From a virus, in the IMG/VR virus record IMGVR_UViG_3300012815_000001: a stretch of DNA of 64,000 nt; one strand, 5' to 3'. Of this stretch, positions 22,593 through 60,620 are shown piece by piece. Numbering within the stretch: the stretch's first letter is position 1; every line of letters starts with the position of its first letter. A program made the translations under genes and the position numbers. The notes under the pieces are model-generated. The model saw only the letters and a program-made list of their open reading frames with translations, ran no database searches and was not told where the DNA came from.

Positions 22593-22614
22593 AAGCCCGC
22601 ACGATTGCGGGCTT
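22593..22614 (-). terminator. Rho-independent terminator-like hairpin
   Basis: AAGCCCGC-6nt-GCGGGCTT, T-rich tail on the minus strand. Confidence 0.55.
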
Positions 22615-22793
22615 CTCTAAAAACAAACCTAACTAACAAGCAGCGGACTTTACTAAAAGATGAACAACTTGCTGCTTGCCTTTACAGTTTAACATTTATA
22701 TTTACAAATTAAGACAATAAAGAATTTATTCTTAAAAAATTAGATTTTATTTTTTTAAATGTTATTATTTAAAAACAACAAACCTTTACTAAA

Positions 22794-23057: not shown

Positions 23058-23127
23058 TTAACCACTTATCAATTAGTGTCTCATCAGAGGCTTTAATTTT
23101 GCCCACCGGAAAAATATGGAATAGGCA

Positions 23128-23140
23128 AAATGGTATAATT
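23128..23140 (+). promoter_or_regulatory. Extended -10 promoter AAATGGTATAATT
   Basis: Exact motif copy followed by AAACAAACC, upstream of ATG 23167. Confidence 0.75.
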
Positions 23141-23166
23141 AAGCTAATAAACAAACCTTTTGAATC

Positions 23167-24897: not shown

Positions 24898-24912
24898 GGT
24901 AAGCAACAATAG

Positions 24913-24933
24913 AAGCCCTACGGGGCTTTTTTT
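24913..24933 (+). terminator. Rho-independent terminator
   Basis: AAGCCC-tacg-GGGCTT plus T run. Confidence 0.8.
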
Positions 24934-24974
24934 GTGCCTTGAAATCACTGCCATTTTTCTTTTGTGGTCACTCA

Positions 24975-25868
24975 TCAGAAGGTCATGAGCTTTACAGCAT
25001 GCTCAAATGCATTTTCCCTCGCTTTGACGTGGCCCTGGCTCATCAGGAAGGCCAGCACGTCATCACCGCTGTAATGCTCTGCAAATGCCTGCCTAACCAC
25101 CTTCCTGTCGATTACATCGTCAATCACGGAATCACCAAGAAGCCTTGATTTGTACACGAGCGTTTCACGTAACGCCTTTAGGTAGAAAGCGGCGTCATCA
25201 GGGCTACCAGCTCCCACAGCAGGAGCTGTGAGCTTCATGCCCTTGGCCTTCTGTATCTGAGCCACACATTCAGTGCAGGAACGCTTTAGCGAGCGATTGC
25301 AGGTCACGAATGACCCAGTGCCATGGTGCTTGAATCCAGCAGCGTGTATAGGTGCTTCCAGGCTCTTTGGACGAGGTACGCGAAAGGTGCTGACACTCTT
25401 GTTCAGAGCCCAAATGAACATCTGTGCGTTGTAGGCATACTGGTCATCATCCTTATGCTTGTCGATCCTGCAAACGAGGTCATAAAGCTTGCTGTGAAGG
25501 CTTCCTTTGATCGTAGTAACCAATGTTGGGGCAAAGCCAAGGCTAGCCAGGTCTTTGAGCTTTACGGACGTGACAGAGCTGATAGCAAGGTAGTGGTAGG
25601 TCTTTGACTTCGGGACAATCGTTACGTCATACCCTTCTATGTTTTTTGCGCTCATCAGCTTGAAAAGCTTGTCGGTCAGCAGGTCATCAGCAGTAAAGAA
25701 CTGATCCTTCACCCCCTGCGCGTTGTACGCTTTCAGGCAGAAAGGCGCCTTGCCTTTCTCAATCAAGGCTTCTGTAGCCGGGTGGAATATAACTTGGAAT
25801 TTGTCAGCTTCAAAGGAAGCTAACTGGTTAGAAAAATGGTCGATTCTAGCTATTTTTGTTTTTGTCAT
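24975..25868 (-). CDS. RepB-type DNA primase-like protein, apparently degenerate
   Basis: KNIEGYDVTIVP...HYLAISSV...LGFAPTLV...AAGFKH follows the RepB-primase layout, but SS stands where DD is expected. Confidence 0.5.
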   Translation of the reverse strand: MTKTKIARIDHFSNQLASFEADKFQVIFHPATEALIEKGKAPFCLKAYNAQGVKDQFFTADDLLTDKLFKLMSAKNIEGYDVTIVPKSKTYHYLAISSVTSVKLKDLASLGFAPTLVTTIKGSLHSKLYDLVCRIDKHKDDDQYAYNAQMFIWALNKSVSTFRVPRPKSLEAPIHAAGFKHHGTGSFVTCNRSLKRSCTECVAQIQKAKGMKLTAPAVGAGSPDDAAFYLKALRETLVYKSRLLGDSVIDDVIDRKVVRQAFAEHYSGDDVLAFLMSQGHVKARENAFEHAVKLMTF

Positions 25869-25919
25869 TCTTTTTCTCGTTTATTGTTGTTTTCTCTCCT
25901 TTCGGAATATTATTGCCAA

Positions 25920-26411
25920 TTAGAATGGGATGAGCCCATCTACACCCTCTTGCTTCATATCATTATTAAACTGCTTATATTTCTTGAATCTCTCTTTACA
26001 AATCTGCCCATTTACCAACGCAGCAGATCTAAACGATTTGTTCAATGCGCTAGCCATTTTCATCTTCTCTTCAATACTACCTTTACAAGCAAACTGGACA
26101 TTCACTTTAAAAGTCGTTTCACCACCTGTCCTATTACTATTTTTAGTTTCAATGAAATTCATATACCTCAAAACATTTAGGGATTTCTTACGAGTATTTT
26201 CAGAAACGTCCAAGTACTTATCAAGGTCATGAAGGTTAACTTTGCATTCATTAAATCTATCCATATTTTCGACTGCCGCCATCAGGATTTGCCCCGCCAC
26301 TTTATCAAAACCAACCACCGCAATATAATAAGGCATTGCGCTCGTAAGAATCTGCGCGTAAAAATTCTTTTCTAATTTATTAAATGTTATACTATTAAAA
26401 GGGTTCTTCAT
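25920..26411 (-). CDS. RepL-like winged-helix replication/maintenance protein
   Basis: ENMDRFNECKVNLHDLDKYLDVSENTRKKSLNVL..MNFI...FKVNVQFACKG resembles the RepL N..i...HTH...vNP...KG pattern. Confidence 0.55.
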   Translation of the reverse strand: MKNPFNSITFNKLEKNFYAQILTSAMPYYIAVVGFDKVAGQILMAAVENMDRFNECKVNLHDLDKYLDVSENTRKKSLNVLRYMNFIETKNSNRTGGETTFKVNVQFACKGSIEEKMKMASALNKSFRSAALVNGQICKERFKKYKQFNNDMKQEGVDGLIPF

Positions 26412-26468
26412 CTCAACCTCAACTCATTAATTAGACTGTTTGCCGCAGTCTTTTTATTTTTCTATCAA

Positions 26469-26780
26469 TTAAAGGTTAAGGAACTTAACTTCAATCCACA
26501 TCATTCCATGGGCTTTATCATGCTCAACAGCAATTAATTTTTGCTCAATTAAAACGTTCATGCATCTGCGTACATTTTCGCTTGTGCAATCCATCCACTT
26601 CATAATCTCTGCTTTGTCCGTATAAACGACATGCAAGCCAGTTTCTGTTTTATCAGCAGCAGTGCAGAGTTTTATCAATAGCGTATGCGCGGAGTGTTTT
26701 GTCAAAGCCACTTTACGAAGAGCTTCCAAGGCTTTTTCAGAAGTAGGCAGTTTTATATATCTTCTATTCTCAATATTCAT
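26469..26780 (-). CDS. Small winged-helix DNA-binding protein
   Basis: DKAEIMKWMDCTSENVRRCMNVLIEQKLI HTH-like segment; likely start ATG 26780 with AAACAAACC leader. Confidence 0.55.
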   Translation of the reverse strand: MNIENRRYIKLPTSEKALEALRKVALTKHSAHTLLIKLCTAADKTETGLHVVYTDKAEIMKWMDCTSENVRRCMNVLIEQKLIAVEHDKAHGMMWIEVKFLNL

Positions 26781-26890
26781 GTTGATTATTATTTGGTTTG
26801 TTTTAATACAATAGCATTTGAAAAACACAAAATTGTGGTTTAAGCACAAATTTGTTGGAAAATATTTTAGTATGATAAAATAAAGCAAAC

Positions 26891-27015
26891 TTTGGAGTAC
26901 AATTTTTTGTACTCCAAAAAGAGAAATTCCATAAATATGTTGAAAAAAACTGCTTTAGAGTACAGTTTTTTGTACTCTAAAATACCTTTACAGTACAATT
27001 TTTTGTACTCTAAAG
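26891..27015. repeat. Three palindromic ~28-bp repeats (candidate origin/operator sites)
   Basis: TTTGGAGTACAA-TTTT-TTGTACTCCAAA (26891-26918); TTTAGAGTACA-GTTTTT-TGTACTCTAAA (26954-26981); CTTTACAGTACAA-TTTT-TTGTACTCTAAAG (26986-27015). Confidence 0.9.
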
Positions 27016-27589
27016 TCTCTACAGGCCACGGAAATCAAGGACTGAAATCCTATAGCGCGCGCGTATAATTTAAGATCTCATTAAAAACATTCAGGCGTCA
27101 GCAAACACAGCTAACCATAACTGGGTATTGGATCATCCATCAACCTTGAAAATGCATTAGGGATAGCAATGACTTTGATTGATCCTTGAAGCTCATTCCT
27201 TTGTTAAAGGTTCGGGCACTCGCTGCGCGAAATTGTTCAGCCCTAAATCACCAACAATTTGGATCATCCGTTTGCCGTTCAGGTATCCGCCAGGACACTT
27301 TTTTAATTAAAGCTATTCCTGCATTTCTGATGGTGGATTACCTGGCATTGCAGGATGGTCCATTGGGCTGAATCTCATCCAGCTCGACACGAGCAAATGA
27401 TTTTCCCTGGAGAAGGGCTGTGAGGCGTTTTGTGACACGTTAGACCAACCAAGCTTCCCTTCTGTCGTTTTCCGTACAAACTTCCCAGCACAGGCGTCCT
27501 AGTACGGAACAACCGTGGGTGACGAAAGGAGACCGAGGGTAAAAGCCTTACCAGCTCCGTAGGCACAGCAACTGAACAAATTTTTGGTA

Positions 27590-27622
27590 AAAAAAAAGCC
27601 CCAATCCGAAGATCAGGGCTAT
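27590..27622 (-). terminator. Rho-independent terminator downstream of the tRNA-derived att core
   Basis: Minus strand AGCCCTGATC-TTCG-GATTGGGGCT followed by a long T run. Confidence 0.75.
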
Positions 27623-27626
27623 TTAT

Positions 27627-27683
27627 TTTGGTACAAAGCGTTGGTACAAAACGCTTTATGTGACCTCTCGTAAGTGCTTGATT
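27627..27683. promoter_or_regulatory. Integrase arm-type repeats and IHF site left of att
   Basis: TTGGTACAAA twice in tandem; TAAGTGCTTGATT (27671-27683) is the reverse complement of AATCAA-GCAC-TTA, matching IHF WATCAANNNNTTR. Confidence 0.6.
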
Positions 27684-27702
27684 TACAAGAGCGTCAATAT
27701 AA

Positions 27703-27728
27703 TGGCGGAGAGATAGGGATTCGAACCC
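27703..27728 (-). mobile_element. att core: duplicated 3' end of tRNA-Ser
   Basis: Minus strand GGGTTCGAATCCCTATCTCTCCGCCA = T-arm, acceptor strand and CCA only; as I recall it, this matches the Pseudomonas tRNA-Ser(CGA) tail. Confidence 0.85.
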
Positions 27729-27819
27729 GACCAGCACACCCCACAACCCGCTCTAGGCCGCAATTATATTGGTTTTTGGGTAGGCTGCAAGGACAGAAAC
27801 GGCCTACAGCGGCCCATGT

Positions 27820-27840
27820 TTTGCCCTAAATTTGCCCTAA
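27820..27840. repeat. Direct repeat TTTGCCCTAA x2 (prophage arm-type sites)
   Basis: 27820-27829 and 27831-27840, about 90 bp inside att. Confidence 0.6.
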
Positions 27841-27981
27841 GACTGACTGCACATGGGGATGCCGCAGTCGGCATTGAAGCTCACACCAGTCACAGCTCCA
27901 CATTGAACCAAGTGATTCGCATAGCTTCGGCAAAGCGGTCCACGACTGACTCTCGGATAGAGTGCTGTGCCACAAGGGCTT

Positions 27982-28251
27982 TTAGCATGTCCGACTGGAT
28001 GGCCTCCCCGGCGTGAGCACCTGGCGGCGATCAATAGCGGCCACCTCGACCGCAATAAACAGCGCCTCAATAGTGGCAGGGGTCAGCGCACGCGCAGCCT
28101 CCACGCCTTCCACAAACCCCTCCGCGCGTGCTTGGGCCAGCTGCAGGCCGTGCATATCCTCGGCCCGCGACAGGCGTGACAGGTGGTTTTGCATCTTAGT
28201 GCGCAGCCCCGGCGGCAGGCTGATGGCGTCCAGCTTTTGACTGATGCTCAT
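27982..28251 (-). CDS. Small hypothetical protein, similar to 28496..28780
   Basis: GFVEGVEAARALTP versus GFLDGLVAAEVLSP. Confidence 0.65.
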   Translation of the reverse strand: MSISQKLDAISLPPGLRTKMQNHLSRLSRAEDMHGLQLAQARAEGFVEGVEAARALTPATIEALFIAVEVAAIDRRQVLTPGRPSSRTC

Positions 28252-28517
28252 GCCGGCACCTCCGACAGATAGGCCCGGATCTTAGCAAGGTCGCCTAACC
28301 AGTGGTGCGCTTCGCTCAGATCGCACTCCGGACAGTGATGCACCGGGTCCTGCGCATTGCTCGGCCATTGCAGGGCCGGGCAGTAGCGGCAGCGCACAGC
28401 CTCATGGCTCATGATCCTGTGGTCACTCCAGGCACCCCGCGCGAAGTCAGTACGCAAGGGCGGCGACTGCGAACCGGCAGCGAAGCCTTGAACATTTACG
28501 TATTCATCCATGCGCAT
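28248..28517 (-). CDS. Small putative Zn-binding protein
   Basis: EAVRCRYC...PSNA...HCPEC; same domain as the C-terminus of 28935..29507. Confidence 0.6.
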   Translation of the reverse strand: MRMDEYVNVQGFAAGSQSPPLRTDFARGAWSDHRIMSHEAVRCRYCPALQWPSNAQDPVHHCPECDLSEAHHWLGDLAKIRAYLSEVPA

Positions 28518-28780
28518 TCAAACCCCTTAATAAGTCGGTGATGGAATTCTCGGCCTTGCTCTGGAGATAGGACCTCAGCGGCCACCAGGCCGTCCAAAAA
28601 ACCGATCAGCTGGTTAAACAGGCTTGGGGGTGCCTGCTCAGTAAGGGCTTGAATGCGGAAGGCCTCGACGTGGTGACGCAAGCGATAGAGCATGTAATCG
28701 GGGTCTGCTAGGGTCATCAGGTCGTTAAACCATTGCTGGGCATTGTCCAATGCCAGCGGGTCTGTAAGCGGCGCGTACAT
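28496..28780 (-). CDS. Small hypothetical protein, similar to 27982..28251
   Basis: 94-aa ORF overlapping the next gene. Confidence 0.6.
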   Translation of the reverse strand: MYAPLTDPLALDNAQQWFNDLMTLADPDYMLYRLRHHVEAFRIQALTEQAPPSLFNQLIGFLDGLVAAEVLSPEQGREFHHRLIKGFECAWMNT

Positions 28781-28934
28781 AGCGACATGCCTTAAAGCAA
28801 AAATGTGGTGGGGGAATGCTTAATACCACGCATGGGGGGTATTGTAGACGAGTGTAGGGGTTCTGGTTTCCGCGCCACAAAAATCCGGCCTCCACACCTG
28901 GCCTAAGTGTGGGGGCCTTTTGACATAAGCGGCG

Positions 28935-29507
28935 TTATTGGTAACGCCTGACTGGAAAACACGTCATTCCGGCAGAATCGCCGAACGCGGTCCCTAGGAT
29001 CGCCGCCAGATCCCGCAACGGGTAGTGCAAGTCGCTAATCTCACAGTCATCGCAGTGTTCCAACGGAATGTGGGCATTGCTGGGCAGTTGGGTGGCCAAG
29101 CAATAACTACAGCGCACGGCTTCGTCACTCATAATCCACTTGTCATTCCACAGTCCCAGCGCAAAATCGCTCGTCCCCCTATCATCCATCGGCGACGCCA
29201 AATCGCGATTTGAAGTCATACACAACCTTGCCAAGCGCTGGACAGCGCTTCCACTGGCGCCCGGGCTGCCAAATTGTTCGACGAATACTTCATTGTTGTT
29301 TAGCCACGTAAATAGCTGGGCGCATGCGCGGGTGATCTCTGGATCCAGCCCCCACACGTCGGTCACGGCGGAGCGAACATTCCTTCCGGCATTCCACAAG
29401 GTGAATAGAAAACTGGATACCATGCGGCCCTGCTTGGTGTCGTCCTGAGCGGCAATTATCAGTCTCTCTAATGCCTGTTGAGTTTCTGGATCGAGAGTAA
29501 GTGACAC
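28935..29507 (-). CDS. Two-domain hypothetical protein with C-terminal CxxC...HCxxC domain
   Basis: EAVRCSYC...PSNA...HCDDC at the C-terminus. Confidence 0.65.
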   Translation of the reverse strand: MSLTLDPETQQALERLIIAAQDDTKQGRMVSSFLFTLWNAGRNVRSAVTDVWGLDPEITRACAQLFTWLNNNEVFVEQFGSPGASGSAVQRLARLCMTSNRDLASPMDDRGTSDFALGLWNDKWIMSDEAVRCSYCLATQLPSNAHIPLEHCDDCEISDLHYPLRDLAAILGTAFGDSAGMTCFPVRRYQ

Positions 29508-29705
29508 AGCGTAATTTCCTTCTTACGTGAGCGATGGACGTGCGTAGAGCCGTTATGTAGGGGCCTGGTGGATCCCTTGCCAGCACACTGCTTTCCGGTC
29601 AGACATAAAAAAGCCCTACCTCTGATTTAAATGTAGGAGCCTTTTTGACAAAAGCGACGTTAAAATCGGTGAATGTGACGCTAGTGAGTTTGGCCTCTAC
29701 AGCCT

Positions 29706-29860
29706 TTATTTAAGCTGACTGGCGAAACGACCTACGGCGCTCACCACTTGCTTTGCACCCTCCTGGATCTTAACGATAACCGAGCCCGCCTGGTTCGCTA
29801 ATTTCAGACCTTGCTCCGCTTGTTGCTTGCTGCTTGCCATGTCCTGTGTTGACGCATCCT
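29706..29860 (-). pseudogene. 3' fragment of a methyl-accepting chemotaxis protein gene
   Basis: MASSKQQAEQGLKLANQAGSVIVKIQEGAKQVVSAVGRFASQLK resembles an MCP C-terminal methylation helix; the rest of the gene is absent. Confidence 0.6.
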
Positions 29861-29875
29861 GCCCGGCCGCTCCTT

Positions 29876-30388
29876 TTACTTCGGTGTAGAAACTTCTTTT
29901 GCGTAAGCCTGACAAGCCCGCAGGGCGATCAGTCCTTGATCGCCGGCATCGGTGATTCCGATAATTCGTTGAGCATGCGTCGGGTCAAGTTGGGCTCGAC
30001 GGGCTGCATGAACCACGCTGACGGCGCTGGAGGTGGCAGGCACGCTGCAGCCACTGGCTGAATCCGTGGCGTCGAGAAGGACTGACAGCCGGAGTTCAGT
30101 AGTAGCAAGGCGATCACGGATAACAGCCTGCTTGCGTTGCTCATCGGATAATTCCTTTGTGTGTTGTTGGTCCTGGATAGCGAGTTTCTGCTCGATGACC
30201 AGGCGCTTGTCCTGCTCGGCGCGCGCCTGGGTGGTAGCGGCATTGCCGATCGCGTCGAGGTCCGCCTGAAACTGCTCCGCTTGCTTGGCCAGCTTCCCGT
30301 CATACCGCCAGTCCTGCACCTGCCAGGCGGCGCCGAAGCTCACGGCCATGGCCAGCAGGACCACAACCAACTTCTGCACCAGCGTCAC
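29876..30388 (-). CDS. Rz: Inner-membrane spanin (Rz-like)
   Basis: N-terminal TM, coiled coil, C-terminal GDQGLIALRACQAY; directly after the endolysin. Confidence 0.9.
   Translation of the reverse strand: MTLVQKLVVVLLAMAVSFGAAWQVQDWRYDGKLAKQAEQFQADLDAIGNAATTQARAEQDKRLVIEQKLAIQDQQHTKELSDEQRKQAVIRDRLATTELRLSVLLDATDSASGCSVPATSSAVSVVHAARRAQLDPTHAQRIIGITDAGDQGLIALRACQAYAKEVSTPK
29929..30144 (-). CDS. Rz1: Outer-membrane spanin lipoprotein (Rz1), embedded in Rz
   Basis: ATG 30144, lipobox LNSGC, Pro-rich (CLPPPAPSAWFMQP), alternative frame inside Rz. Confidence 0.85.
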   Translation of the reverse strand: MSNASRLLSVIALLLLNSGCQSFSTPRIQPVAAACLPPPAPSAWFMQPVEPNLTRRMLNELSESPMPAIKD

Positions 30389-30930
30389 GCCAGCACCTTC
30401 AGCGCCTTGCCATACAGCGCCTGACGGTCGGCCAGTCCGTTGGTACCACCGTTGATGCGCTTAGTGATCTTCAGCAAATCGCCTTGATCTGCCAGTGTGT
30501 TCAGTCCGCGGGAGGACCAGAACCACGCCGCCGACATCGCCGCGTGCTGTGGCTGCTCGAGCAGCTCGGGCTCATTGACCAGGTCCAGGCCCAGGGCCTC
30601 GCCGCACGCCGCATAGTTCGCACGTCCGGTAATCTGGATTAGGCCGCGGCCACGGTACTTGAAGCCGTCACCCTTCACGGTGTTGCCCAAGTCGGCGCGA
30701 CCTTCATAGCCGGCCTGCTGCGCGGTTGGCCCCCATATCTCACGCACATAACGCAATTGGCCTGACTCATGACCGACCTGGGCGATGAAGGCGGCGATGC
30801 GCAGACGATTGACGATGGCATACCGGGTCATGGCCGTATTTAACGCAGGAACGAAAACGCCGGCACTGCGACCGGCGTTCGGGAGGATCTGCAGCAGTTG
30901 CTGCTCAGTGATCGACATAATTTTCTCCAA
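30385..30930 (-). CDS. Endolysin, glycoside hydrolase family 19
   Basis: AAFIAQVGHES...GDGFKYRGRGLIQITGRANY...INGGTNG. Confidence 0.95.
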   Translation of the reverse strand: MEKIMSITEQQLLQILPNAGRSAGVFVPALNTAMTRYAIVNRLRIAAFIAQVGHESGQLRYVREIWGPTAQQAGYEGRADLGNTVKGDGFKYRGRGLIQITGRANYAACGEALGLDLVNEPELLEQPQHAAMSAAWFWSSRGLNTLADQGDLLKITKRINGGTNGLADRQALYGKALKVLA

Positions 30931-30940
30931 GATCGGCTAA

Positions 30941-30965
30941 TAAAAAACCCTGCCGAAGCAGGGTT
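30941..30965 (-). terminator. Rho-independent terminator after the anchorless tailspike paralog
   Basis: Minus strand AACCCTGC-TTCG-GCAGGGTT-TTTTATT. Confidence 0.85.
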
Positions 30966-30992
30966 CCTTATTTCACTTTGAGCGGGTTGTGT

Positions 30993-32654
30993 TTAACGAA
31001 GCGTCATGCGTGCCAGGGCTGGCGAACCATAAAACTTCAGCTCGCCATCCTCCCACCAAGTAGCAAAGTTCTCACCAATGCCGCCAGGGATTGGGGCTTG
31101 CGCTGTATCAATCGCAAACGGTGCGCCTTGGCTAGAAACTTCTGGGAGCGAAAGGAAGCCGGTAATGACGCAACCCTTGGGCGCCGCACCTGGTGCTGCA
31201 TTACGGCGCTCAAGAACCACAGAACCATATGCAGTTGAACCGGTTTGCAAAACAAACACATTTTTGACTCGAACGTAGTTCACGTCAGTGATCAACACCG
31301 CAGCATCACCGCAGTCGCCATAGACACCGTCGACCTCGACGTCATAGCTACCCACACCGAAAATATCAACAAGTTGCCCGGTTACGTTGTCTCCAACGTT
31401 ATCGATGAACTTGTTGTTGCCGTAGGACGTGACCAGCTCGTAGCAGTCCTCAGGCGCCCCATCTGTCCAGCACTCCTTGACCAGAAGTCCAGATGTTTCC
31501 CAGAACTCACATACTTCGTTGCCGGCCGAGTTCGAACCTTCAGCCTTTTGGAAGAAGCACTGCAAAACAGTGACGTTGCTGGTACGGCGCCACTCAAACA
31601 GGCGCCGATCAGCCACGTTACCTTCGAACGAGCAGTTCTCAAAAATGCAGTTGTCCGCACCATTGCCGTAGGCGGCAGTTTTGGTGACACCTGGCGTGTA
31701 GGTAAAGCGAACGTTTTTGAAATGACTGTTACGAATCATATTCGGAAGCTGGCTACCAATATTGCCACCAGGCTTCAGGTAATTGAGGTCACCAATCCCA
31801 ACATTGCAGCCACTGATAACGGTGTCGCGAACATTCGTGTAATCGATGGTCCAGCCGTTACCTACGTGCCAATGGAAATGGCTCGAAGTAAAGGCGCAAC
31901 GATAGATTTCGACTTCGAAAGCGCCTGAGCCGTAAGCATAAAAGACACCGTTTGTAGCGGTGTTTTTTGCAGTCCCTCGGACGATACAGTCAGTAAGCTT
32001 GACCTTTTTGGAGAGCTGACCGGCACCAACAAAACAGTAGTTGGAAAGACCGGAAATCTCGGAACCAATCATTTCCAACGTACCGGAACTGATGTTGGCC
32101 ATCACTTCGTCTGCAGTCCCGCTGCCACCTGCAATTTTGCAACGCTCAAACACAATAGGAGTGCCAAACGCGACAAAGTTGATCGCAGCAGAGCCGTTCG
32201 TTACGCCGGAGGCCTGCACGTTGAAAAAGCGTACGTGATAGGTCGCCGCCGGATCATTGAAGATAAAGGCTGGCTTCCCGCTCGCAAAGGTAATGGATTT
32301 ATTTTTGATTACATACGGGTCGGCCTGGGTCCCGGTACCGCTAGCCGCCAGAGCTGAAGCGGATGCCTGAGAGGTGATTGAAATAACAGGCGAAGCTGTA
32401 CGCGGGTCAGTAGTCACACCCACCTTTGTCGGGTCCGTCGGGCCCAGGGTTACCCAAGGCTGGCAGCCAGCGTTTCTGCGAATCGACTCGGCTTTAAACA
32501 TTGCCTGCATGCGCACAAGCTCAGCGAGAGGAGCTGATCCAATAGGCGTGCTGATCTCAGTATCAGCGGGAAGCGGATCAACGGCAGCTACTTCCAAGCT
32601 GAGAGCTTCAGGGGATTCGGTTTGGCTAGTAGGAATTTCGGTTGTGTTGTTCAT
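30993..32654 (-). CDS. Right-handed beta-helix (tailspike/depolymerase-like) protein lacking the virion-anchoring domain
   Basis: Colinear with the C-terminal ~520 aa of 32811..35180 (64 of 76 identical in one sampled block); RBS AAGGA before ATG 32654. Confidence 0.85.
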   Translation of the reverse strand: MNNTTEIPTSQTESPEALSLEVAAVDPLPADTEISTPIGSAPLAELVRMQAMFKAESIRRNAGCQPWVTLGPTDPTKVGVTTDPRTASPVISITSQASASALAASGTGTQADPYVIKNKSITFASGKPAFIFNDPAATYHVRFFNVQASGVTNGSAAINFVAFGTPIVFERCKIAGGSGTADEVMANISSGTLEMIGSEISGLSNYCFVGAGQLSKKVKLTDCIVRGTAKNTATNGVFYAYGSGAFEVEIYRCAFTSSHFHWHVGNGWTIDYTNVRDTVISGCNVGIGDLNYLKPGGNIGSQLPNMIRNSHFKNVRFTYTPGVTKTAAYGNGADNCIFENCSFEGNVADRRLFEWRRTSNVTVLQCFFQKAEGSNSAGNEVCEFWETSGLLVKECWTDGAPEDCYELVTSYGNNKFIDNVGDNVTGQLVDIFGVGSYDVEVDGVYGDCGDAAVLITDVNYVRVKNVFVLQTGSTAYGSVVLERRNAAPGAAPKGCVITGFLSLPEVSSQGAPFAIDTAQAPIPGGIGENFATWWEDGELKFYGSPALARMTLR

Positions 32655-32746
32655 TTTCTTTTCCTTGGTTATGAAAGGCCCGATCATATCGGGCTAGTAG
32701 TCTTCCGTGTTTACCTCAACAGCGAGACAACCATACCCCATAAACA

Positions 32747-32762
32747 CTGTATATGCATACAG
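32747..32762. promoter_or_regulatory. LexA (SOS) box
   Basis: CTGT-ATATGCAT-ACAG matches CTGT-N8-ACAG with an AT-rich spacer, in the intergenic gap upstream of 30993..32654. Confidence 0.8.
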
Positions 32763-32810
32763 CTTTTTTTCATGCGGCGGCTTTTCCTCGCCGACAGGGA
32801 AAGAAAGTGG

Positions 32811-35180
32811 TTATCGAAGTGTTAGGCGCGCCGGGGTTGCAGCGCCATACGTCTTAAGCTCACCGTTTTCCCACCAGGTAGCGAAGTTCGATCCGATCCC
32901 GCCAGCCACAGCCGCATAGCGAGTGTCCACAGCGAACGGAGCACCCTGGCTGCAAATCTCAGGAAGAGAGAGCAGACCTGTGATACTGCATCCTTTTGGA
33001 GACGCACCAGGTGCGGCGTTGCGACGTTCGAGCACGACAGAGCCGAGAGCGGTCGTGCCGGTTTGCTTAACGAAGACGTTGGAGACTTGAACGTAGTCCA
33101 CGTCCGTGATCAGCACTGCAGCGTCACCACAATCGCCGTACACACCGTCGACTTCAACATCGAAACTGCCGACGCCGAAGATGTCGACGCATTGCCCCGC
33201 GACGTTATCCGCTACGTTATCGATCAAACGATTTCGACCGTAGCTCGTAACGATTTCGTAGCAGTCCTCTGGCGCTCCGTTCGTCCAGCATTCCTGAATC
33301 GTAACTCCAGCACTCTCCCAGAACTCACAGACCTCATTGCCAGCAGTGTTGTTACCTAAGGGCTTCTGGAAGTAGCAACGCAGCAACGTCACATCACTGG
33401 TGCGGCGCCACTCAAATAGGCGCCGATCCACAGCGCTCCCCTCAAACGAACAGTTTTCAAACTTGCAATTGTCGGCGCCATTGCCGTAACAGGCTGTTTG
33501 TGTAACGCCGGCCGTGTAAGTAAATCGCACATTTTTGAAATTGCTGTGCCGAATCATGTTGGGGATCTGACTCAGGATATTGCCACCGGGTTTGAGGTAG
33601 TTCAGATCGCCGATAGCTACGGCACAACCACCAATGATTGTGTCTTGCACGTTGTTGTAGTCAATCGTCCAGCCGTTACCTACGTGCCAATGAAAGTGAC
33701 TGGAAGTGAAAGAGCAGCGGTAGATATCAACGTCGAACTCGCCAGCATTGGCTGCCCAGAAAACCCCGTTAGTAGCTGAGTTTTTCGCTGTGCCGATGAC
33801 TCGACAATCCGTCAGCCGGACTCGCTTCGCAGTAAGGCCAGCACCTACAAATAACTGGCCGGAAATGCCCGAGAACTCGACACCATAGAACTCCAACGTC
33901 CCGCTGCTGATTTGCAGTGCAATTTCATCAGCGGTTCCAGAGCCACCTGCAATACCACACCGCTCAAACACTACGGGCGTACCAAAAGCAGCAAAGTTAA
34001 TCGCCGCGCTGCCGTTGGATGTCCCCGTAGCACGCACGTTGTAAAAACGGACGTAATAGGTTGCCGCTGGGTCATTGAAAACGAAGGCAGGTGTACCGCT
34101 ACTGAAGGTCAGGTTCCTATTTTTTATGACGTATGGATCGGCTTGCGTGCCTGTGCCACTTGCCGCCAGAGCAGCAGCGCTGGCCGCAGAGGTAATAGAA
34201 ATAACAGGTGAGGCAACGCGGGCGTCTGTAGTGACACCCACCTTAGTTGGGTCCGCTGGTCCCAACGTCACCCATGGCTGACAACCCGCTGCGCGCCGGA
34301 TCTTCTCGGCTTTGAACATTGCCCGCATCCGGATTGACTCGACCAGCGGGGCAGTACCTATTGCGGTCGTAACTTTTGCATCGGATCGCATCAGTTGCGC
34401 AAAATCGCGGATCCAGCGGCCTGTGCTCGCGGGTGTTGCTTTCACAATAAATACGTCGTCAGCCGCAGCAACGCTCGACGGGTTCCACAGGAAATCGCCG
34501 GCGAGCCCTGGCACGTTCACGAGGCTGACCGTATCGTTTTCATAGCGGCCACTAATCGACTTCAACTCCGACAGACTGTTCACATGACGTATAGCACGGG
34601 CCACCATGGTGCCGCCCATAATCAGTGACGGATTGGCCAGCTGCTGCCTGAGGGCTCCGTCCGCTACCGAGACCAACTTCGGACTGTCTACCGTCCAGTT
34701 TCCACTCATGGTCAACGGCAGGCTTGCCTGATCACGTACCCGGTAAAGCTCACCAGATCGTTGCAGCAGCTGAGTGATGCGCAGCACCTGCGCCCCAGCT
34801 GCATATTGGACGAACTCACTTTCGTAAACTGATCGTTCCAAAAGCTGGTCGAACTCCCCACGCATGGTGACCAACAACTGATCAATTTCCCCTCGCACCT
34901 GCTCCACTGCAGTGGCCACGTCCAGAGTCGAGATATCCATGAGCCGGGGCGCGACATAGCCATAGCGGCTGATCTGAATATCGATGCGATCAGTCGTAGA
35001 GTAGAAGAACACCCGGCCATTGGCGTCAGCGAGAAACGGGTTGCCGAGCGGCACACTACCGGCAGTATCTGAGAACAAGACAGCACGCTGCTGCGTACCG
35101 TGGACGAACACGTCCACGCTTGCTCCAGGCAATAGAGCACCGTCTTCGGCCCGTGCGGCAAAGAACTGAATAGGCTGCAT
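32811..35180 (-). CDS. Tailspike / receptor-binding protein with beta-helix depolymerase-like domain
   Basis: N-terminal particle-binding region (LFSDTAGSVPLGNPFLADANGRVFFY), adapter segments, then parallel beta-helix repeats; last tail gene. Confidence 0.85.
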   Translation of the reverse strand: MQPIQFFAARAEDGALLPGASVDVFVHGTQQRAVLFSDTAGSVPLGNPFLADANGRVFFYSTTDRIDIQISRYGYVAPRLMDISTLDVATAVEQVRGEIDQLLVTMRGEFDQLLERSVYESEFVQYAAGAQVLRITQLLQRSGELYRVRDQASLPLTMSGNWTVDSPKLVSVADGALRQQLANPSLIMGGTMVARAIRHVNSLSELKSISGRYENDTVSLVNVPGLAGDFLWNPSSVAAADDVFIVKATPASTGRWIRDFAQLMRSDAKVTTAIGTAPLVESIRMRAMFKAEKIRRAAGCQPWVTLGPADPTKVGVTTDARVASPVISITSAASAAALAASGTGTQADPYVIKNRNLTFSSGTPAFVFNDPAATYYVRFYNVRATGTSNGSAAINFAAFGTPVVFERCGIAGGSGTADEIALQISSGTLEFYGVEFSGISGQLFVGAGLTAKRVRLTDCRVIGTAKNSATNGVFWAANAGEFDVDIYRCSFTSSHFHWHVGNGWTIDYNNVQDTIIGGCAVAIGDLNYLKPGGNILSQIPNMIRHSNFKNVRFTYTAGVTQTACYGNGADNCKFENCSFEGSAVDRRLFEWRRTSDVTLLRCYFQKPLGNNTAGNEVCEFWESAGVTIQECWTNGAPEDCYEIVTSYGRNRLIDNVADNVAGQCVDIFGVGSFDVEVDGVYGDCGDAAVLITDVDYVQVSNVFVKQTGTTALGSVVLERRNAAPGASPKGCSITGLLSLPEICSQGAPFAVDTRYAAVAGGIGSNFATWWENGELKTYGAATPARLTLR

Positions 35181-35192
35181 ATCGAATCTCTG

Positions 35193-37733
35193 TCAGGTTT
35201 TAAAGGTGATCGCCGGGGCGAAATTGAGTTGCGAGCGGACACTGCTCCACGTATCAAACGCGGCAGCGCGCAGGTAGTACGTTGTGCCTGGAGCCAGGCC
35301 TGTGATCTGGCCGGCGACTGAAGCGCCTTGATAGCCGATGGTGCCGGTGATAGTTGGATCAAACCCAGGCGAAGTGGCGTACACGAACATGTAACCTGCT
35401 ACGTCAGGCGCAACACTTGTGCTGCAGTTGACGTTGGCGGTCGTGCCACTAACTGTCGCAGCGGTACCTGACACAGCGGGCGGCGCGGTGTTGACCACGA
35501 CTAGGGCGGCGACTGGTGCGCTCCCCGCAGAATTTCGCTCAATGACCTCAACCCGGTAGCTACGGACCAAAGGAGCATCAACCAAGGCGTCTGCCAACTG
35601 GTAGGTGAACGTGGTGCTGGTGGTGACCACCTCACGCAACAAAGCATTGGTGCTGGCATTGCGGATCCTGATCAGTCGATCAGCAGCATGTGCCCCAGCG
35701 GTCCAACCGACGGTGAAGTAAGGCGCCTCAAACGCTCCTACTAACGCCAAGCCTTGCGCTGCACCAGGGACGACCCGAACCGGCGACAATGTGACGCTGT
35801 AGGGCGTCACATCGGCCAGATCCTCAAGTGAACGGCCAAACACATTGAACGACCGGAACTTGACCCAGACGGTGTGGCCGATCTGATCCGCCGTGTAGCT
35901 GTATTTCCAAATCGCATCATCCAGACGCACGAACGAGGCATCTGCAGGATGGTTTGCCACGGATGAACCCAGACGGCCCCGGCGCAAGTACTGCAAGTTG
36001 TAGGCGCCTGGACCTGTCAGGATTGCATCGCGATAACTAACAAGCTCGCCATCTATCCAACACAATGTCGCCCCGCTATCAGCTTCAGCGGTTGTGGCGG
36101 CGGTCAACTGGTCGGCGACCGAGAGCTGCACTGCTAAGTTATTGGTGGTGTCAGGGTCACTGCCGGGAGGTAGCGGCGCGGTCAGGCGACCGATGCGTGA
36201 GCGGCCGTAGATACTCTGGACCATCCTATAACTGTCACCGTCGGCGCTGATCCAAACTTCACAGCCCCCCCAAGCCTCACCAGCGCCGGCGACCGCGCCC
36301 CATACCTGGGTTTCCCCTGGAAGCAGCAGGCTTTCTGGTGGGTTGAAGATAATCGGTGGCAACACCGGCCCTGGCGCCGCGTTCTGATTGCCTTGATAAC
36401 CCGTCTTGCTCTGCACGGGATAATTCGGAGCACTGCCCGTCCCCAGCAACGCATCCTCAGCCACAACAGCCAGCTTGCCGTCTTCATCCTCCTCGACCGA
36501 AATCAAGCGTACCAGGCGGCGATCAAGCTTCAGTGCCGGTTCCGTGATCGTGACCAGGTCCATCGGTTCCAGCAGCACGTGCTGCCAGCCAAGGGAAAAT
36601 TGGTATTCATTGCGGATATACAATTTGCGTTGCACCAGCAGTTGGGCCGAGTGCGAAGCAATCGCCGTGTTGCAGATCTCGTAAGCCTTGATGGTGTCCA
36701 TCGGCTTGGAGCCAAACTGCTCGATAGCAGCTTGATCCGGTGCGCGTACTACATCGGTGTTGTACTCGTGATCGCGGTCGAGGATCTCCAGCGACACTTC
36801 GTTGTAGCTGTCGGCCTGGCTCTTGATCTTCAACTGAATCGGCGGCTCGCCCTCCTCCGTCAAGAAGTCATCATCCGTGAGGTGTGCCACCGGAGTGACA
36901 TTCGGGTACCAGGTCACTCCGTTGCCAGTGACCACCTGATCACCGAAGGGAATCACCTTCATTTTTCCAGCAGACCAGATCACCTCGCTGTTGGTCAGCT
37001 GCAACCAGCGCGTGATGGCTTCGCTACACGGGGCCTGCTCATCCAGCACGGGACTGAGCAACAAGTTCTCGGCCAGGCAGTAATCGCGATAACTGCTCAG
37101 GTCATCAATCCAACGAGGATCAAAACCTATGCCATCCAGCGGGTCCAGCAACAGCCCCGGCAGGAAGAGCCCGGGGTTAGCATCGGGCAATCCAGGCACC
37201 TGATAAGGACCGTCAACCTCAAAGGTATGGTTCTGCACGCCGGCGTTGTCATTGAGCAAGTAGCGCGCCGCATACACATACGATGTATCCGAATAGGCGA
37301 TCGCCTCGGTCGGGTGATTAGTCTCCAGGTAACCCCAGACCGGCTGGTCTGCTGTGCCCGGCATGAAGCTCAAACCTATCTGAGCCAGAGCCGACTGCGT
37401 GACACCATCGACAACCTTATCGGCGAAGACTTCCTTGTCACGAAAGATCCGCCTTACCGATCTGAGCTGGCCCCGCCCGATACCCAGGATGATTGCGGCG
37501 TAGTAGGTATAGGTGGTGTCTTTCTGTGTGGCACCGCCGCCGCCCTTGCCACCAGTCTTGGTCTTGGTGGTTTTGGCAACCGCATCGAAGTCTGTGTAAT
37601 AGATCAGGTTGGGACTGATCCGGTTACGCCCGGCAATCCAGGCGATGGGCTTGCCACTGGCACTGCTCTGGATCTGCAGCGCGTTGATGCGCGTTGCACT
37701 ATTGGAAATTGAACTACCGCCCCCTCCCCCCAT
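35193..37733 (-). CDS. Central tail tip / host-specificity protein (GTA-type), C-terminal FN3-like domain
   Basis: Follows NlpC/P60; LQIQSSASGKPIAWIAGRNRISPNLIY; LRRGRLGS; YYLRAAAFD; start ATG 37733. Confidence 0.85.
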   Translation of the reverse strand: MGGGGGSSISNSATRINALQIQSSASGKPIAWIAGRNRISPNLIYYTDFDAVAKTTKTKTGGKGGGGATQKDTTYTYYAAIILGIGRGQLRSVRRIFRDKEVFADKVVDGVTQSALAQIGLSFMPGTADQPVWGYLETNHPTEAIAYSDTSYVYAARYLLNDNAGVQNHTFEVDGPYQVPGLPDANPGLFLPGLLLDPLDGIGFDPRWIDDLSSYRDYCLAENLLLSPVLDEQAPCSEAITRWLQLTNSEVIWSAGKMKVIPFGDQVVTGNGVTWYPNVTPVAHLTDDDFLTEEGEPPIQLKIKSQADSYNEVSLEILDRDHEYNTDVVRAPDQAAIEQFGSKPMDTIKAYEICNTAIASHSAQLLVQRKLYIRNEYQFSLGWQHVLLEPMDLVTITEPALKLDRRLVRLISVEEDEDGKLAVVAEDALLGTGSAPNYPVQSKTGYQGNQNAAPGPVLPPIIFNPPESLLLPGETQVWGAVAGAGEAWGGCEVWISADGDSYRMVQSIYGRSRIGRLTAPLPPGSDPDTTNNLAVQLSVADQLTAATTAEADSGATLCWIDGELVSYRDAILTGPGAYNLQYLRRGRLGSSVANHPADASFVRLDDAIWKYSYTADQIGHTVWVKFRSFNVFGRSLEDLADVTPYSVTLSPVRVVPGAAQGLALVGAFEAPYFTVGWTAGAHAADRLIRIRNASTNALLREVVTTSTTFTYQLADALVDAPLVRSYRVEVIERNSAGSAPVAALVVVNTAPPAVSGTAATVSGTTANVNCSTSVAPDVAGYMFVYATSPGFDPTITGTIGYQGASVAGQITGLAPGTTYYLRAAAFDTWSSVRSQLNFAPAITFKT

Positions 37734-38175
37734 CACTGCCTCCAAAACTATTGAGTGTGTAATAACGCACCGGTCTGCTTGCCAAGCGCTCTTCGCGCAT
37801 ATCAGCCACTTCCACACCGATATCTAAAAAGGCGTGAATGACTCGGTGTTCGTCGATGACGACTGCCCCATGACTGTAGGTGCGGCCGAACTTCCAGATG
37901 GCGACATCGCCGGGTTGCGGGGTTACGACTTGCCGCCCGTATTCTTCCAGCCAGGCCAGATACAACTCTTTGCTGCGGTGCAGGTGCCAGTCTTGGGCGT
38001 AAGACCCAGGATCAATCCAAGGTAAGAGGCCGAGCGAGTGATACACCTCGATCAACAGCCAGGCGCAGTCCACGCCCACGCCCAGCAGGTGCTGACGGTG
38101 CTGATAAGGCGTCCTGAGCCAGCGCCTTGCCTCGGCGACCACGGCTTCGCGCTGCTGCAGCTCCAGCTCGGTCAT
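37714..38175 (-). CDS. NlpC/P60 tail peptidase
   Basis: EARRWLRTPY...GVGVDCA...TYSHGA. Confidence 0.9.
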   Translation of the reverse strand: MTELELQQREAVVAEARRWLRTPYQHRQHLLGVGVDCAWLLIEVYHSLGLLPWIDPGSYAQDWHLHRSKELYLAWLEEYGRQVVTPQPGDVAIWKFGRTYSHGAVVIDEHRVIHAFLDIGVEVADMREERLASRPVRYYTLNSFGGSDGGRGR

Positions 38176-39032
38176 ACGGAGGTCTCCGCCACAGGGATAA
38201 AGGGCATTCCGCGATAACGCCTACGGTTGCCGAACTTGTTGGTACAGGCGTCCAGCGTGCGAGGACAGCCGGGATAAATCAGGAACTGATCGCCCGGCTG
38301 CGGCTCTGCCGGCAGACCGAGAATTAGTGTGACGGTACCGTCAGCCGTCTGGCGGCGGACAGTTCGCGAAACACCCGCGTTGCCGCCATTAACGAACCGG
38401 ATCACGCCCTGGTCAAACCAACCGTTTTCGGCGCCGATATTGGTGCGAATACGAAGGCCACTTGTACCGTTCAGCACCAGGCCTGCGGTTTCGAACAATG
38501 AGCGGTTCACGCCACAATCAGCGCTGTAAACAGTTCGTAGACACCCCGGTTGATAGACCCCCTTCGGTACCTTGGTGTCCAGCAGCTCCATCGGGGACTT
38601 GACCGAGAACGTTGCCTGCTCGCGATCAGCAGGATCAACCTCGGCAACCCGGCCAATGAAGCGCAACACCGTACCAACCACTGGCGCTGTCCAGTCGGGC
38701 ATAAACGCCCGGGCCAGGCTCAACGACGCGCCATCGAAACCACCACCTGCGATGAACGCCAGAATCGGTTCCCCCAGCAACGTGTCCTCGACGCCGGCGT
38801 AGAGGGTGACGCTCAAGGTGTCGACCTCCACCCCTCGAACCGTGCGGATGCCGGTACGTTTGAGCAGGGGGCCGGACGCGGAATAATTCGCGCCATCGGC
38901 GAACAATTGCACACCGGCGTCGGTGTAACGAAGCACCTGACCACTTGCCAGGGTGATGGTGTAAAGATCGGCCATCACAAAGCTTCGGGCCGTGGCCAGA
39001 AACTGCCTCAACTCGGGACTCACATCGATCAT
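38172..39032 (-). CDS. DUF2163-family tail hub protein
   Basis: DLYTITL..GQVLRYTD...CLRTVYSADCGV...GCPRTLDACTNKFGN..RYRGMPFIP; start ATG 39032. Confidence 0.85.
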   Translation of the reverse strand: MIDVSPELRQFLATARSFVMADLYTITLASGQVLRYTDAGVQLFADGANYSASGPLLKRTGIRTVRGVEVDTLSVTLYAGVEDTLLGEPILAFIAGGGFDGASLSLARAFMPDWTAPVVGTVLRFIGRVAEVDPADREQATFSVKSPMELLDTKVPKGVYQPGCLRTVYSADCGVNRSLFETAGLVLNGTSGLRIRTNIGAENGWFDQGVIRFVNGGNAGVSRTVRRQTADGTVTLILGLPAEPQPGDQFLIYPGCPRTLDACTNKFGNRRRYRGMPFIPVAETSV

Positions 39033-39679
39033 GGTTTGATGCTCGTGAAAGAGACGTTTTTCATCTCCCAGATCCGCCCGAACGGCTGGGCGCCGTCTAG
39101 TGAATCTGAGTCGTATGCACAGCGGAAAAAGAAGGCGCCTGTCCACTCCAAGGCCTGGCCGAGCCCGGGTGCCTGGGGGAAGGTAACCTGGCCGAGAGAA
39201 CTGACGCTGTAGGCCGTCACAGGCGCTCCGGCGATGGTCATCAGGTCAATGTTGACTACTCCGTAAACAGGCTCGACCCATCCCTCAATAGCCCGCGAGA
39301 GTTGAAACGTTCTAGTAACCCCGTCGCCAAAGCCAAAGCGGTGCTTGGTGACTTGGTGGTCGGTCCTGTCGAAATACAGAAAGTCCCCGAACTGGCCCTT
39401 GCGTTGGTTAAAGAACGCCACCAAGCGCGACCATTCATCCAGCCCAGGACGTTTGCGCACTGCGTTGTAGTTGATCTGAAACGTCCAAAACGGCGCCGGA
39501 TAATACGCTGTGGTACGACGTCGACCGCTGGCCGACGTCTGCACTCCCGTGCTCCACGCTGGAGACTTCTTGGCGAGGTACGTCTGCCCTGGCATGTAGG
39601 GCAACACGTCGTCCGCCATAACACCGCGATCCGGCAAACCGGCAATCCATCGCGCTGGAAAAAATGGCCCGAGCAGCAT
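39029..39679 (-). CDS. DUF2460-family distal tail protein
   Basis: WSTGVQTSASGRRR...LVAFFNQRKGQFGDFLYFD...GDGVTRTFQL. Confidence 0.85.
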   Translation of the reverse strand: MLLGPFFPARWIAGLPDRGVMADDVLPYMPGQTYLAKKSPAWSTGVQTSASGRRRTTAYYPAPFWTFQINYNAVRKRPGLDEWSRLVAFFNQRKGQFGDFLYFDRTDHQVTKHRFGFGDGVTRTFQLSRAIEGWVEPVYGVVNIDLMTIAGAPVTAYSVSSLGQVTFPQAPGLGQALEWTGAFFFRCAYDSDSLDGAQPFGRIWEMKNVSFTSIKP

Positions 39680-39688
39680 GAAAACTCC

Positions 39689-59704: not shown

Positions 59705-59741
59705 CCACGTTTCCTCGAATGGGCGTTTCGGCATGGATATT

Positions 59742-59750
59742 AGTGTTACT
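59742..59750. promoter_or_regulatory. Putative repressor operator core AGT-N3-ACT
   Basis: AGTGTTACT here and at 60693-60701; AGTAATACT at 60718-60726. Confidence 0.55.
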
Positions 59751-59822
59751 TCTTTTAAACAGCAAGAGAAAAAGTCGCAATGCTGTTTTGATAATATAAG
59801 TCTTCCTTATAAATTGGATGGC

Positions 59823-60620
59823 ATGACTATCTCAATACCTTTAGCCGCCGATGACGAGACCCGAAAAGCCGAGGCTATGCGCCTTAAAGCTATTTTTCAG
59901 GATCGCAAGCGGAACGACCCGACCCTCACCCAAGACAAAATCGCCGATCTCTGCGAATGGTCTGGACAAAGTGTCGTCAGCCAGTACTTGAATGGGCGCA
60001 TCCCCCTCAACATCAGCGCCCTCATAAAATTCGCGAACGTTTTGGGCTTTTCACTCGACGAAGTAAGCCCGCGATTGGCTGCTATAGCGGAGATGCCCCG
60101 CCTGCGGAATTCGCAAGAACACAAAAAAACATCAGCAAGCACTGACTGGGAAATGCACCCGATTGAAGTATGGGATGACGACACGCCCCTCGGCCCAGAC
60201 GAGGTCGAGCTGCCATTTTTTAAAGAAGTGGAATTGTCTGCCGGCAAGGGATCTGAGGTGATGCTTGAAACAAACGGGCGCAAGCTGCGATTCGGCAAAC
60301 GAACCTTGAAACGAAAGAGTATTGATCCGGCCGCTGCTGGCTGCGTGCCTGTAACCGGGAACAGCATGGAGCCCGTGCTACCGGATGGCAGTACAGTCGG
60401 GGTCGATACCGCGAATACGACCATCCAGGACGGCAAGATGTATGCAATCGACCATGACGGCCAACTCCGCGTGAAGCTGCTCTACCGCCTGCCAGGCTCC
60501 GGCCTACGCCTTCGCAGCTATAACACTGATGAGCATCCTGACGAGCGTTACGATGGCGGCTACGTGGAGCAGCATATTCGCGTGATTGGCAAAGTGTTCT
60601 GGTACTCCGTAATGCTCTGA
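59823..60620 (+). CDS. cI: CI repressor (HTH plus S24 autopeptidase)
   Basis: LTQDKIADLCEWSGQSVVSQYLNG HTH; LSAGKG cleavage site; VTGNSMEP catalytic Ser; LRVKLL catalytic Lys; start ATG 59823. Confidence 0.95.
   Translation: MTISIPLAADDETRKAEAMRLKAIFQDRKRNDPTLTQDKIADLCEWSGQSVVSQYLNGRIPLNISALIKFANVLGFSLDEVSPRLAAIAEMPRLRNSQEHKKTSASTDWEMHPIEVWDDDTPLGPDEVELPFFKEVELSAGKGSEVMLETNGRKLRFGKRTLKRKSIDPAAAGCVPVTGNSMEPVLPDGSTVGVDTANTTIQDGKMYAIDHDGQLRVKLLYRLPGSGLRLRSYNTDEHPDERYDGGYVEQHIRVIGKVFWYSVML

Follow-up and report, generated by a model that had tools for sequence, protein, structure and literature searches.

The 64-kb window analysed here (the whole 64,000-nucleotide (nt) stretch of IMG/VR virus record IMGVR_UViG_3300012815_000001) contains a temperate siphovirus-type prophage of fluorescens-group Pseudomonas. 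Downstream of its tailspike gene lies an open reading frame (ORF) for a protein of 553 amino acids (aa) that resembles the β-helix part of the spike, with a palindrome of the LexA type in front of it and an intrinsic terminator behind it (Table 1). The comparisons described below support its interpretation as a selected gene for a spike-type β-helix protein that has no virion adaptor (hereafter, the anchorless gene) and that has a putative conserved LexA operator upstream. The operator/promoter region, the ORF and the terminator would together make up a cassette that separates the tailspike gene from those for lysis.

The anchorless gene and its putative regulatory elements

The open frame spans 30993–32687 on the minus strand (564 aa). 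The ATG at 32654 is likely to be the true start, because this ATG and the AAGGA ribosome-binding site (RBS) are kept in all relatives; the database form of the protein, P0003, also has 553 aa. BLASTP aligned the protein with residues 264–789 of the 789-aa spike without gaps, 398 of 526 positions (76%) being identical. The spike comprises an N-terminal adaptor (residues ~1–95), a conserved middle domain (~97–263) and a neck helix with the β-helix (264–789); its ~263 N-terminal residues have nothing equivalent in the anchorless protein, where just ~28 unrelated, disordered residues precede the alignment. The two genes are 69% identical in nucleotide sequence, with a non-synonymous divergence (dN) of 0.186 and a synonymous divergence (dS) that is saturated and not computable. 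The original prediction, made from the sequence alone, had described an ORF colinear with the spike β-helix, lacking the N-terminal virion-attachment region and differing at silent sites while the protein was kept; all of this was borne out by the alignments.

No Pfam or PHROG family was matched by the anchorless protein, a PDB sequence search gave no meaningful match and a search of the phage GenBank collection (blastn distant mode, 4.3-kb query) returned zero matches. The AlphaFold2 (AF2) model has a mean predicted local distance difference test score (pLDDT) of 68, with residues 100–500 mostly at 70–94. In the same numbering, that of the 564-aa ORF, the model consists of a disordered segment (1–56), a helix homologous to the spike neck (52–72) and a right-handed β-helix (~100–500). 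The best VIA-align match was phage CBA120 TSP3 (Z 29.1, RMSD (root-mean-square deviation) 3.6 over 331 residues), followed by Pam1, Dettilon, APK16, phi92 and HK620 and then by alginate epimerases and other β-helix enzymes; Foldseek against the PDB gave merely generic β-helix matches (E ~1e-3). Many acidic residues are invariant in the alignment of the protein. Neither a signal peptide nor a transmembrane (TM) segment is present in it, the N-terminal net charge being −5 and the maximum 19-aa Kyte–Doolittle mean 1.25. The disordered acidic N-terminus comprises ~28–45 aa in the 553-aa form. Residues 1–28 are the least conserved part (13 of 28, or 46%, identical between P0003 and P0025, compared with 89% overall), and the N-termini of the chromosomal relatives described below differ or are shorter.

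The palindrome of the CTGT-N8-ACAG type pointed out in the original prediction reads CTGTATATGCATACAG. It matches the CTGTAT/ATACAG arms at 12 of 12 positions, both six-nucleotide arms being complete, and is the sole such site in the window, where 0.0034 are expected. The CTGT-N8-ACAG motif is established as the LexA site of Pseudomonas and of gammaproteobacteria. The arms are invariant in all 11 loci that have an anchorless gene (the window-like L011 and L020, with L012–L017 and L021–L023), while the flanks vary. A chance palindrome was rejected on the grounds of this invariance and of the low expected number. Each of these loci has CTGTAT-NN-ATATACAG(T) at a constant distance to the ATG, and the sequence 5′ of the box is far more variable. 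The gap between the spike and the anchorless gene is 143 nt in L012 and 153–156 nt in the remaining loci. A TATGKT hexamer is conserved 11 nt downstream of the box; if it is the −10 element, the box would span about −39 to −24, over the −35 region. An internal control for the type of box is offered by L017, where CTGTACATTCGTACAG (8684–8699) stands 21 nt before the ATG of a umuD-like S24 gene, which is followed by a gene for a Y-family polymerase. From these sequence comparisons we infer that the anchorless gene would be under the control of the SOS (DNA damage) response.

Further consensus LexA boxes occur near the lysis-side end of related prophages, at 8012–8027 in L012, 9529–9544 in L013, 7765 in L024, 7387 in L025, 6406 in L026 and 10265 in L004. 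Those in L012, L013, L024, L025 and L026 precede other prophage-end genes, some of them small and of no known function. LexA-boxed accessory genes thus look like a recurrent trait of this group of Pseudomonas prophages.

Directly 5′ of the RBS, the leader contains a hairpin that the chromosomal stand-alone genes keep at the same position with another stem, GCCCA/TGGGC (L003, 5922–5937); it may influence translation or messenger RNA stability. Behind the gene, a hairpin AACCCTGC-TTCG-GCAGGGTT at 30946–30965 is followed by T6 on the minus strand. Its folding energy is −20.7 kcal/mol (z −5.3), none of 200 shuffled sequences being equally stable, in agreement with the strong terminator that had been predicted. 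The chromosomal stand-alone genes are followed by a homologous terminator, AACCC(T)GC-TTCG-GC(A)GGGTTTTTT. A terminator is also found at the spike/lysis junction of L004, which has no anchorless gene, and a terminator at this place is therefore not unique to that gene. No terminator was found between the spike and the anchorless gene.

Conservation of the module and its stand-alone relatives

The module of spike, box and anchorless gene was found at the 11 loci on two phage backbones, one with a Phage-tail_3 protein and the 789-aa spike and the other with a lambda-J-like FNIII protein and a 741-aa spike. The two types of spike have residues 97–789 in common and differ only in their first 40–95 residues; the endolysins vary among the loci (GH19, Hydrolase_2 and others). 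Close copies of the anchorless gene were seen in P. veronii, P. rhodesiae, P. fluorescens and Pseudomonas sp. KT_2_4; CP166962.1 and CP087170.1 are examples of complete genomes with the module, and a 41-kb IMG/VR provirus has a spike/anchorless pair identical to that of the window. Five related spikes (L004 and L024–L027) are without an anchorless gene. In L004 and L026, where the downstream ORFs were read, the lysis genes come directly after the spike; in L004 the spike stop codon, a terminator and the endolysin ATG all lie within 51 nt. This comparison of gene order supports the view that the anchorless cassette behaves as an insert between the spike and the lysis genes.

Among six orthologous anchorless genes the dN/dS ratio is 0.04–0.07 at a dS of 0.16–1.2, similar to the 0.03–0.09 of the catalytic parts of the spikes; the ratio, which the original prediction had proposed as a check, points to strong purifying selection. 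Within each locus that has both genes, the spike and the anchorless gene are 66–69% identical in nucleotide sequence, with no high-identity tract and no sign of concerted evolution. A recent tandem duplication or gene conversion was rejected for this reason, and the role of a recombination donor for host-range switching, which had been suggested for the gene, is unlikely. At the nucleotide level, the window and L017 agree to 96% in the anchorless gene but only to 79% in the part for the spike C-terminus; a tract of 96–99% identity extends from ~33300, in the 3′ end of the spike gene, to ~31300, covering most of the anchorless gene, so the module has been reshuffled between phages by recombination.

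Tailspike modules are hot spots of mosaic exchange, and the same tract could be expected of an evolutionary leftover or of a silent host-range recombination cassette, in which the LexA-like palindrome would be fortuitous or would serve something else. This explanation is very improbable. The six diverged orthologues, with their low dN/dS, keep the RBS and the start, and 553 codons are intact; the identity to the adjacent spike is everywhere too low for efficient homologous exchange; and the arms of the box do not vary among the loci, despite the small number of such sites expected by chance.

The protein family is small, with 16 clusters among 5.8 billion proteins, and was present in one of 401 sampled genomes of Pseudomonas species. 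In the maximum-likelihood tree built from the shared domain, the window spike pairs with the 741-aa spike P0008, and the anchorless gene forms a clade with four stand-alone proteins (support 100/99). The anchorless gene thus belongs to a separate lineage and is not the duplicate of the neighbouring tailspike that it had been taken for. Under midpoint rooting, used for drawing only, it is the earliest branch of the stand-alone clade. The protein is a mosaic: residues 58–160 are nearer to the spikes, and residues 358–430 are 94% identical to the stand-alone group compared with 72% to the neighbouring spike. The stand-alone proteins are 525–540 aa long, except for P0005, called at 588 aa, a call that is probably over-extended at the N-terminus.

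The four other stand-alone homologues, namely that of P. libanensis DSM 17149 (locus L003) and P0004, P0005 and P0007, the latter three found in isolate and metagenome assemblies, share one chromosomal site, an O-antigen cluster, where they stand between wbpM-like and fdtA-like genes. The upstream side comprises genes for a GT4 glycosyltransferase, an epimerase, a WbpL-like glycosyltransferase and a WbpM-like dehydratase; the downstream side encodes an FdtA-like isomerase, a GNAT protein, a DegT aminotransferase, a Wzx-like flippase, a GT2 protein and an EpsG/Wzy-like protein. Non-coding DNA of ~350–490 bp borders the genes on each side, and they are under purifying selection (dN/dS 0.04–0.08). 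The phage and chromosomal copies have in common the final ~45 nt before the ATG, with the small hairpin and the AAGGA RBS, and the terminator. Beyond these, no further similarity was found between the phage and chromosomal flanks, and the leader, the ORF and the terminator were therefore exchanged between phage and chromosome as a unit. Since the anchorless gene stands apart from the neighbouring spike in descent and groups with lone genes in O-antigen clusters, its product most likely targets an O-antigen.

The chromosomal copies carry a conserved ATGCATAAATGCAT-rich element ~160–200 nt upstream of the ATG. Apart from a ATGCATAAATGCATTGAT...TGCGTTT(A/G)TGCATA element at that same distance (5740–5800 in L003; also in L005 and L006, where it is duplicated, at alignment columns 290–355), nothing in their upstream regions is conserved; the element may be a regulator site in place of the phage LexA box, the centre of which also contains TATGCATA. 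P. libanensis DSM 17149 has both the stand-alone gene (L003, contig 11) and a prophage (L004, contig 7). In the tree, the spike nearest to the stand-alone clade (support 86/92) is the 802-aa one of this prophage, of the P0006 type. The presence of the two in one strain fits a stand-alone enzyme that matches the strain's own O-antigen.

Possible function of a free spike-type enzyme

The interpretation preferred here, to which we give somewhat better than an even chance, is that of a LexA-repressed, moron-like gene for a non-anchored enzyme specific for O-polysaccharide, made on SOS induction and freed at lysis. It is the most economical one because of the selection on the gene, the footprinted box, the umuD-like control box and the protein sequence without a signal peptide or TM segment. 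An SOS-induced soluble protein was also what the original prediction had proposed; the dN/dS of the orthologues, the box at all 11 loci and the protein sequence agree with that part of it, while the origin by duplication and the use as a recombination donor have to be given up.

In a lysogen, judging by the operator sequence and its conservation, host LexA would occupy CTGTAT-N4-ATACAG over the −35 region and keep the gene off. The prophage encodes a CI-like repressor of the S24 type, a family that cleaves itself on RecA activation, and is expected to be SOS-inducible for this reason. After DNA damage, active RecA would thus lead to the cleavage of both LexA and the phage repressor, and transcription of the anchorless gene would begin at once, ahead of any late-operon read-through out of the spike gene and independently of it. 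The protein, having no signal peptide, would stay in the cytoplasm, presumably as a homotrimer formed by way of the neck helix and the β-helix; the ~263-residue adaptor that would fix it to the tail is missing. It would reach its substrate only once the lysis genes have opened the cell, and the free enzyme could then act on debris and on neighbouring cells. The possible effects are that progeny are not trapped, that the receptor is stripped, or both. The solubility, the substrate and the ecological role of the protein are thus what we infer from its sequence and surroundings.

Several observations weigh against this interpretation. A scan for consensus promoters revealed no strong sigma-70 site in the region of the box. 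In four RNA sequencing libraries of one study, contigs cover the whole late region (27700–41000), and the anchorless transcript is therefore not separable from that of the operon; the contigs inside the gene are 4–5 times deeper than the flanks in one library (X11), with many partial matches, and were not counted as evidence. The chromosomal stand-alone genes have no LexA boxes upstream, only GC-rich CTG-N10-CAG strings inside the end of the wbpM-like gene, so the function of the protein does not in itself entail SOS control. No catalytic residues were assigned, and glycan binding alone is thus possible. The protein could be attached to the virion by another route, and a free receptor-destroying enzyme could harm the spread of the phage itself.

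The possible attachment to the virion leads to an alternative in which the anchorless protein is a second receptor-binding protein of the particle. Its trimer would attach through the short N-terminus to the conserved middle domain of the 789- or 741-aa spike, to form a branched spike like those of Klebsiella phage KP32 (gp37/gp38) or Escherichia coli phage G7C (gp66/gp63.1) with two related O-antigen specificities, and the box would only add early expression. The gene always lies directly downstream of a spike of the same family, on two backbones that share this spike only from residue 97; late read-through, with no terminator in between, would transcribe it too; and the protein, which differs from the spike in 24–29% of its sequence, could have another specificity. 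In known branched systems, however, the docking peptide is the conserved part; the N-terminus of the anchorless protein, poorly conserved and modelled as disordered, does not fit a docking peptide. In addition, four close relatives persist under purifying selection in O-antigen clusters without a spike, and an ordinary structural gene needs no conserved LexA operator. A branched spike is consequently doubtful. A predicted complex of spike residues 97–268 with anchorless residues 1–42 scored 0.00, a run without controls that is evidence neither way, and the AF2 model of spike residues 1–300 (mean pLDDT 48.5) is too low in confidence to judge the presence of a T4 gp10-like branching domain.

The surroundings of the stand-alone genes bear on another alternative, a benefit to the lysogen. 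The protein would act on the lysogen's own O-antigen or its precursors, as the chromosomal copies would, alter the cell surface and block superinfection or tailocins, either in SOS-stressed cells that are not fully induced or through weak constitutive expression. The moron architecture with its own operator and terminator, the embedding of the closest relatives in O-antigen biosynthesis clusters and the several other LexA-boxed accessory genes of these prophages all speak for such a role. In Wzy-dependent synthesis, however, polymerised O-antigen is found in the periplasm and the outer membrane only, out of reach of a protein with no signal peptide or TM segment; the cytoplasm contains only single undecaprenyl-linked repeat units, on which endoglycanases of the spike type act poorly. 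SOS induction would also cleave the S24-type phage repressor, and most of the expressing cells would lyse. This explanation is unlikely.

A more speculative proposal, and quite an improbable one, is that the whole stand-alone lineage represents a stored receptor-destroying enzyme, cytoplasmic and freed at lysis, which removes the matching O-antigen from cells nearby. In the phage, LexA would set the time of its production, and the enzyme would govern where the progeny adsorb. In the host clusters it would serve as a population-level defence against phages and tailocins, a lysing cell making its clonemates receptor-less.

Relation to known systems and significance

The preferred reading, an SOS-made enzyme released at lysis, has parallels in several known systems. 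The right-handed β-helix tailspike depolymerases (CBA120 TSP3, the HK620/P22 type and Pseudomonas phage LKA1 gp49) have the same fold (Z 19.7–29.1). The anchorless protein differs from them in having no particle-binding N-terminal domain and no sequence-level match to any solved spike, and in coming from a distinct gene that has an RBS, a putative operator and a terminator to itself; it is 76% identical to the spike in its own prophage's tail module. Soluble, non-structural polysaccharide-degrading enzymes freed at burst are known from phages, including PghP of Bacillus phage phiNIT1 and LevP, and a free tailspike made from an alternative start codon has been proposed (PMC6966330). As in those cases, the enzyme would have no virion anchor, would probably not leave the cell before lysis and would act at a distance. 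Unlike them, the anchorless gene is a separate, long-diverged spike paralogue, and neither an internal-start product nor an unrelated hydrolase of host type, and it has a putative SOS operator.

Morons are represented by the lambdoid lom and bor genes, and LexA-controlled prophage genes by coliphage 186 tum and the Gifsy antirepressors; colicin operons are likewise LexA-controlled. The anchorless gene resembles morons in having its own terminator, and probably its own promoter, between genes that lie side by side in related phages; unlike classical morons, it is predicted from the LexA box to be repressed in lysogens without stress. With the LexA-controlled prophage genes and colicins it shares a canonical gammaproteobacterial box upstream, and its product would be SOS-made and would leave by lysis. 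The cargo, however, is a copy of the phage's receptor-recognising domain, and not an antirepressor, a toxin or an outer-membrane protein. The tandem β-helix proteins of KP32 (gp37/gp38), G7C (gp66/gp63.1) and CBA120 (TSP1–4) provide a further likeness, the second protein having only a short N-terminus. In contrast to those branched systems, this N-terminus is not conserved, the two enzymes are homologous to each other and the anchorless protein has chromosomal relatives without a partner spike.

Soluble phage depolymerases, the idea of a free spike (PMC6966330), LexA-controlled prophage genes and morons are thus already known. A literature search, of incomplete coverage, found no dedicated LexA-boxed anchorless spike paralogue in Pseudomonas and no relatives of one inside O-antigen clusters. 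What was not expected is the link of a spike-type gene to O-antigen clusters. The usual explanations of free phage depolymerases are surplus spikes or internal-start products; here, a separate, long-kept gene appears to be dedicated to the free form, and its apparent wiring to the host DNA-damage switch gives a genetic handle on what a free receptor-degrading enzyme does for a temperate phage. Because the same cassette, with its RBS region and terminator, is found in O-antigen clusters, tailspike enzyme domains move between phages and receptor-building loci. Such movement could explain how spikes gain specificities, or could reveal the use of a phage enzyme by the host.

The late operon of the prophage is on the minus strand and runs from the terminase through the tail genes, the spike and the anchorless gene to the endolysin and the spanin.

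Table 1. Positions of the features of the anchorless cassette and of the surrounding prophage genes in the window
Feature	Position	Strand	Remark
Anchorless β-helix gene, 553 aa	30993..32654	-	RBS AAGGA at 32662-32666
Putative LexA (SOS) box CTGTATATGCATACAG	32747..32762	.	92 nt 5′ of the anchorless ATG
Candidate −10 hexamer TATGGT	32730..32735	-	Read from the alignment; T96 A97 T98 G99 invariant
5′-leader hairpin GCCCGAT-ATG-ATCGGGC	32678..32694	-	Directly 5′ of the RBS
Intrinsic terminator	30942..30965	-	8-bp GC-rich stem, TTCG loop, T6
Tailspike, 789 aa	32811..35180	-	PHROG tail protein matches at residues 100-242
Phage-tail_3 protein	35193-37817	-	Tailspike gene comes next
DUF2460, phiJL001-gp84-like hub, NlpC/P60	After tape measure, before Phage-tail_3	-	
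Tape measure	39689-42460	-	
Portal	48299-49909	-	
Terminase	50130-52253	-	
GH19 endolysin	30385..30918	-	
Rz-like spanin	29876..30388	-	
CI-like prophage repressor	59733..60620	+	Helix–turn–helix and Peptidase_S24

No holin-like ORF was found 5′ of the endolysin (30919–30992 in the window; 7579–7629 in L004). Given the terminator between the tail genes and the endolysin, which is present even in L004, transcription of the lysis genes probably proceeds by antitermination or from a separate promoter.

Beyond the lysis genes, ten ORFs within 20997–28780 gave no match to Pfam; the proteins that they encode include two of 576 and 297 aa. The GC content is 33–42% over 26000–27500, in a profile that covers the window from 26000, and 55–60% in the prophage. 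The contigs of the RNA libraries break at 27699/27700 and at 27728 in all four assemblies, with two different continuations. These breaks may correspond to an attachment core of ~30 bp at the end of the prophage, both junction forms possibly being present in those samples. In library X11, the short contigs over the small prophage-end genes (27741–28900) are the deepest of the covered stretch, at ~900–1200 compared with ~130 for the tail genes; these small genes are possibly morons expressed during lysogeny.

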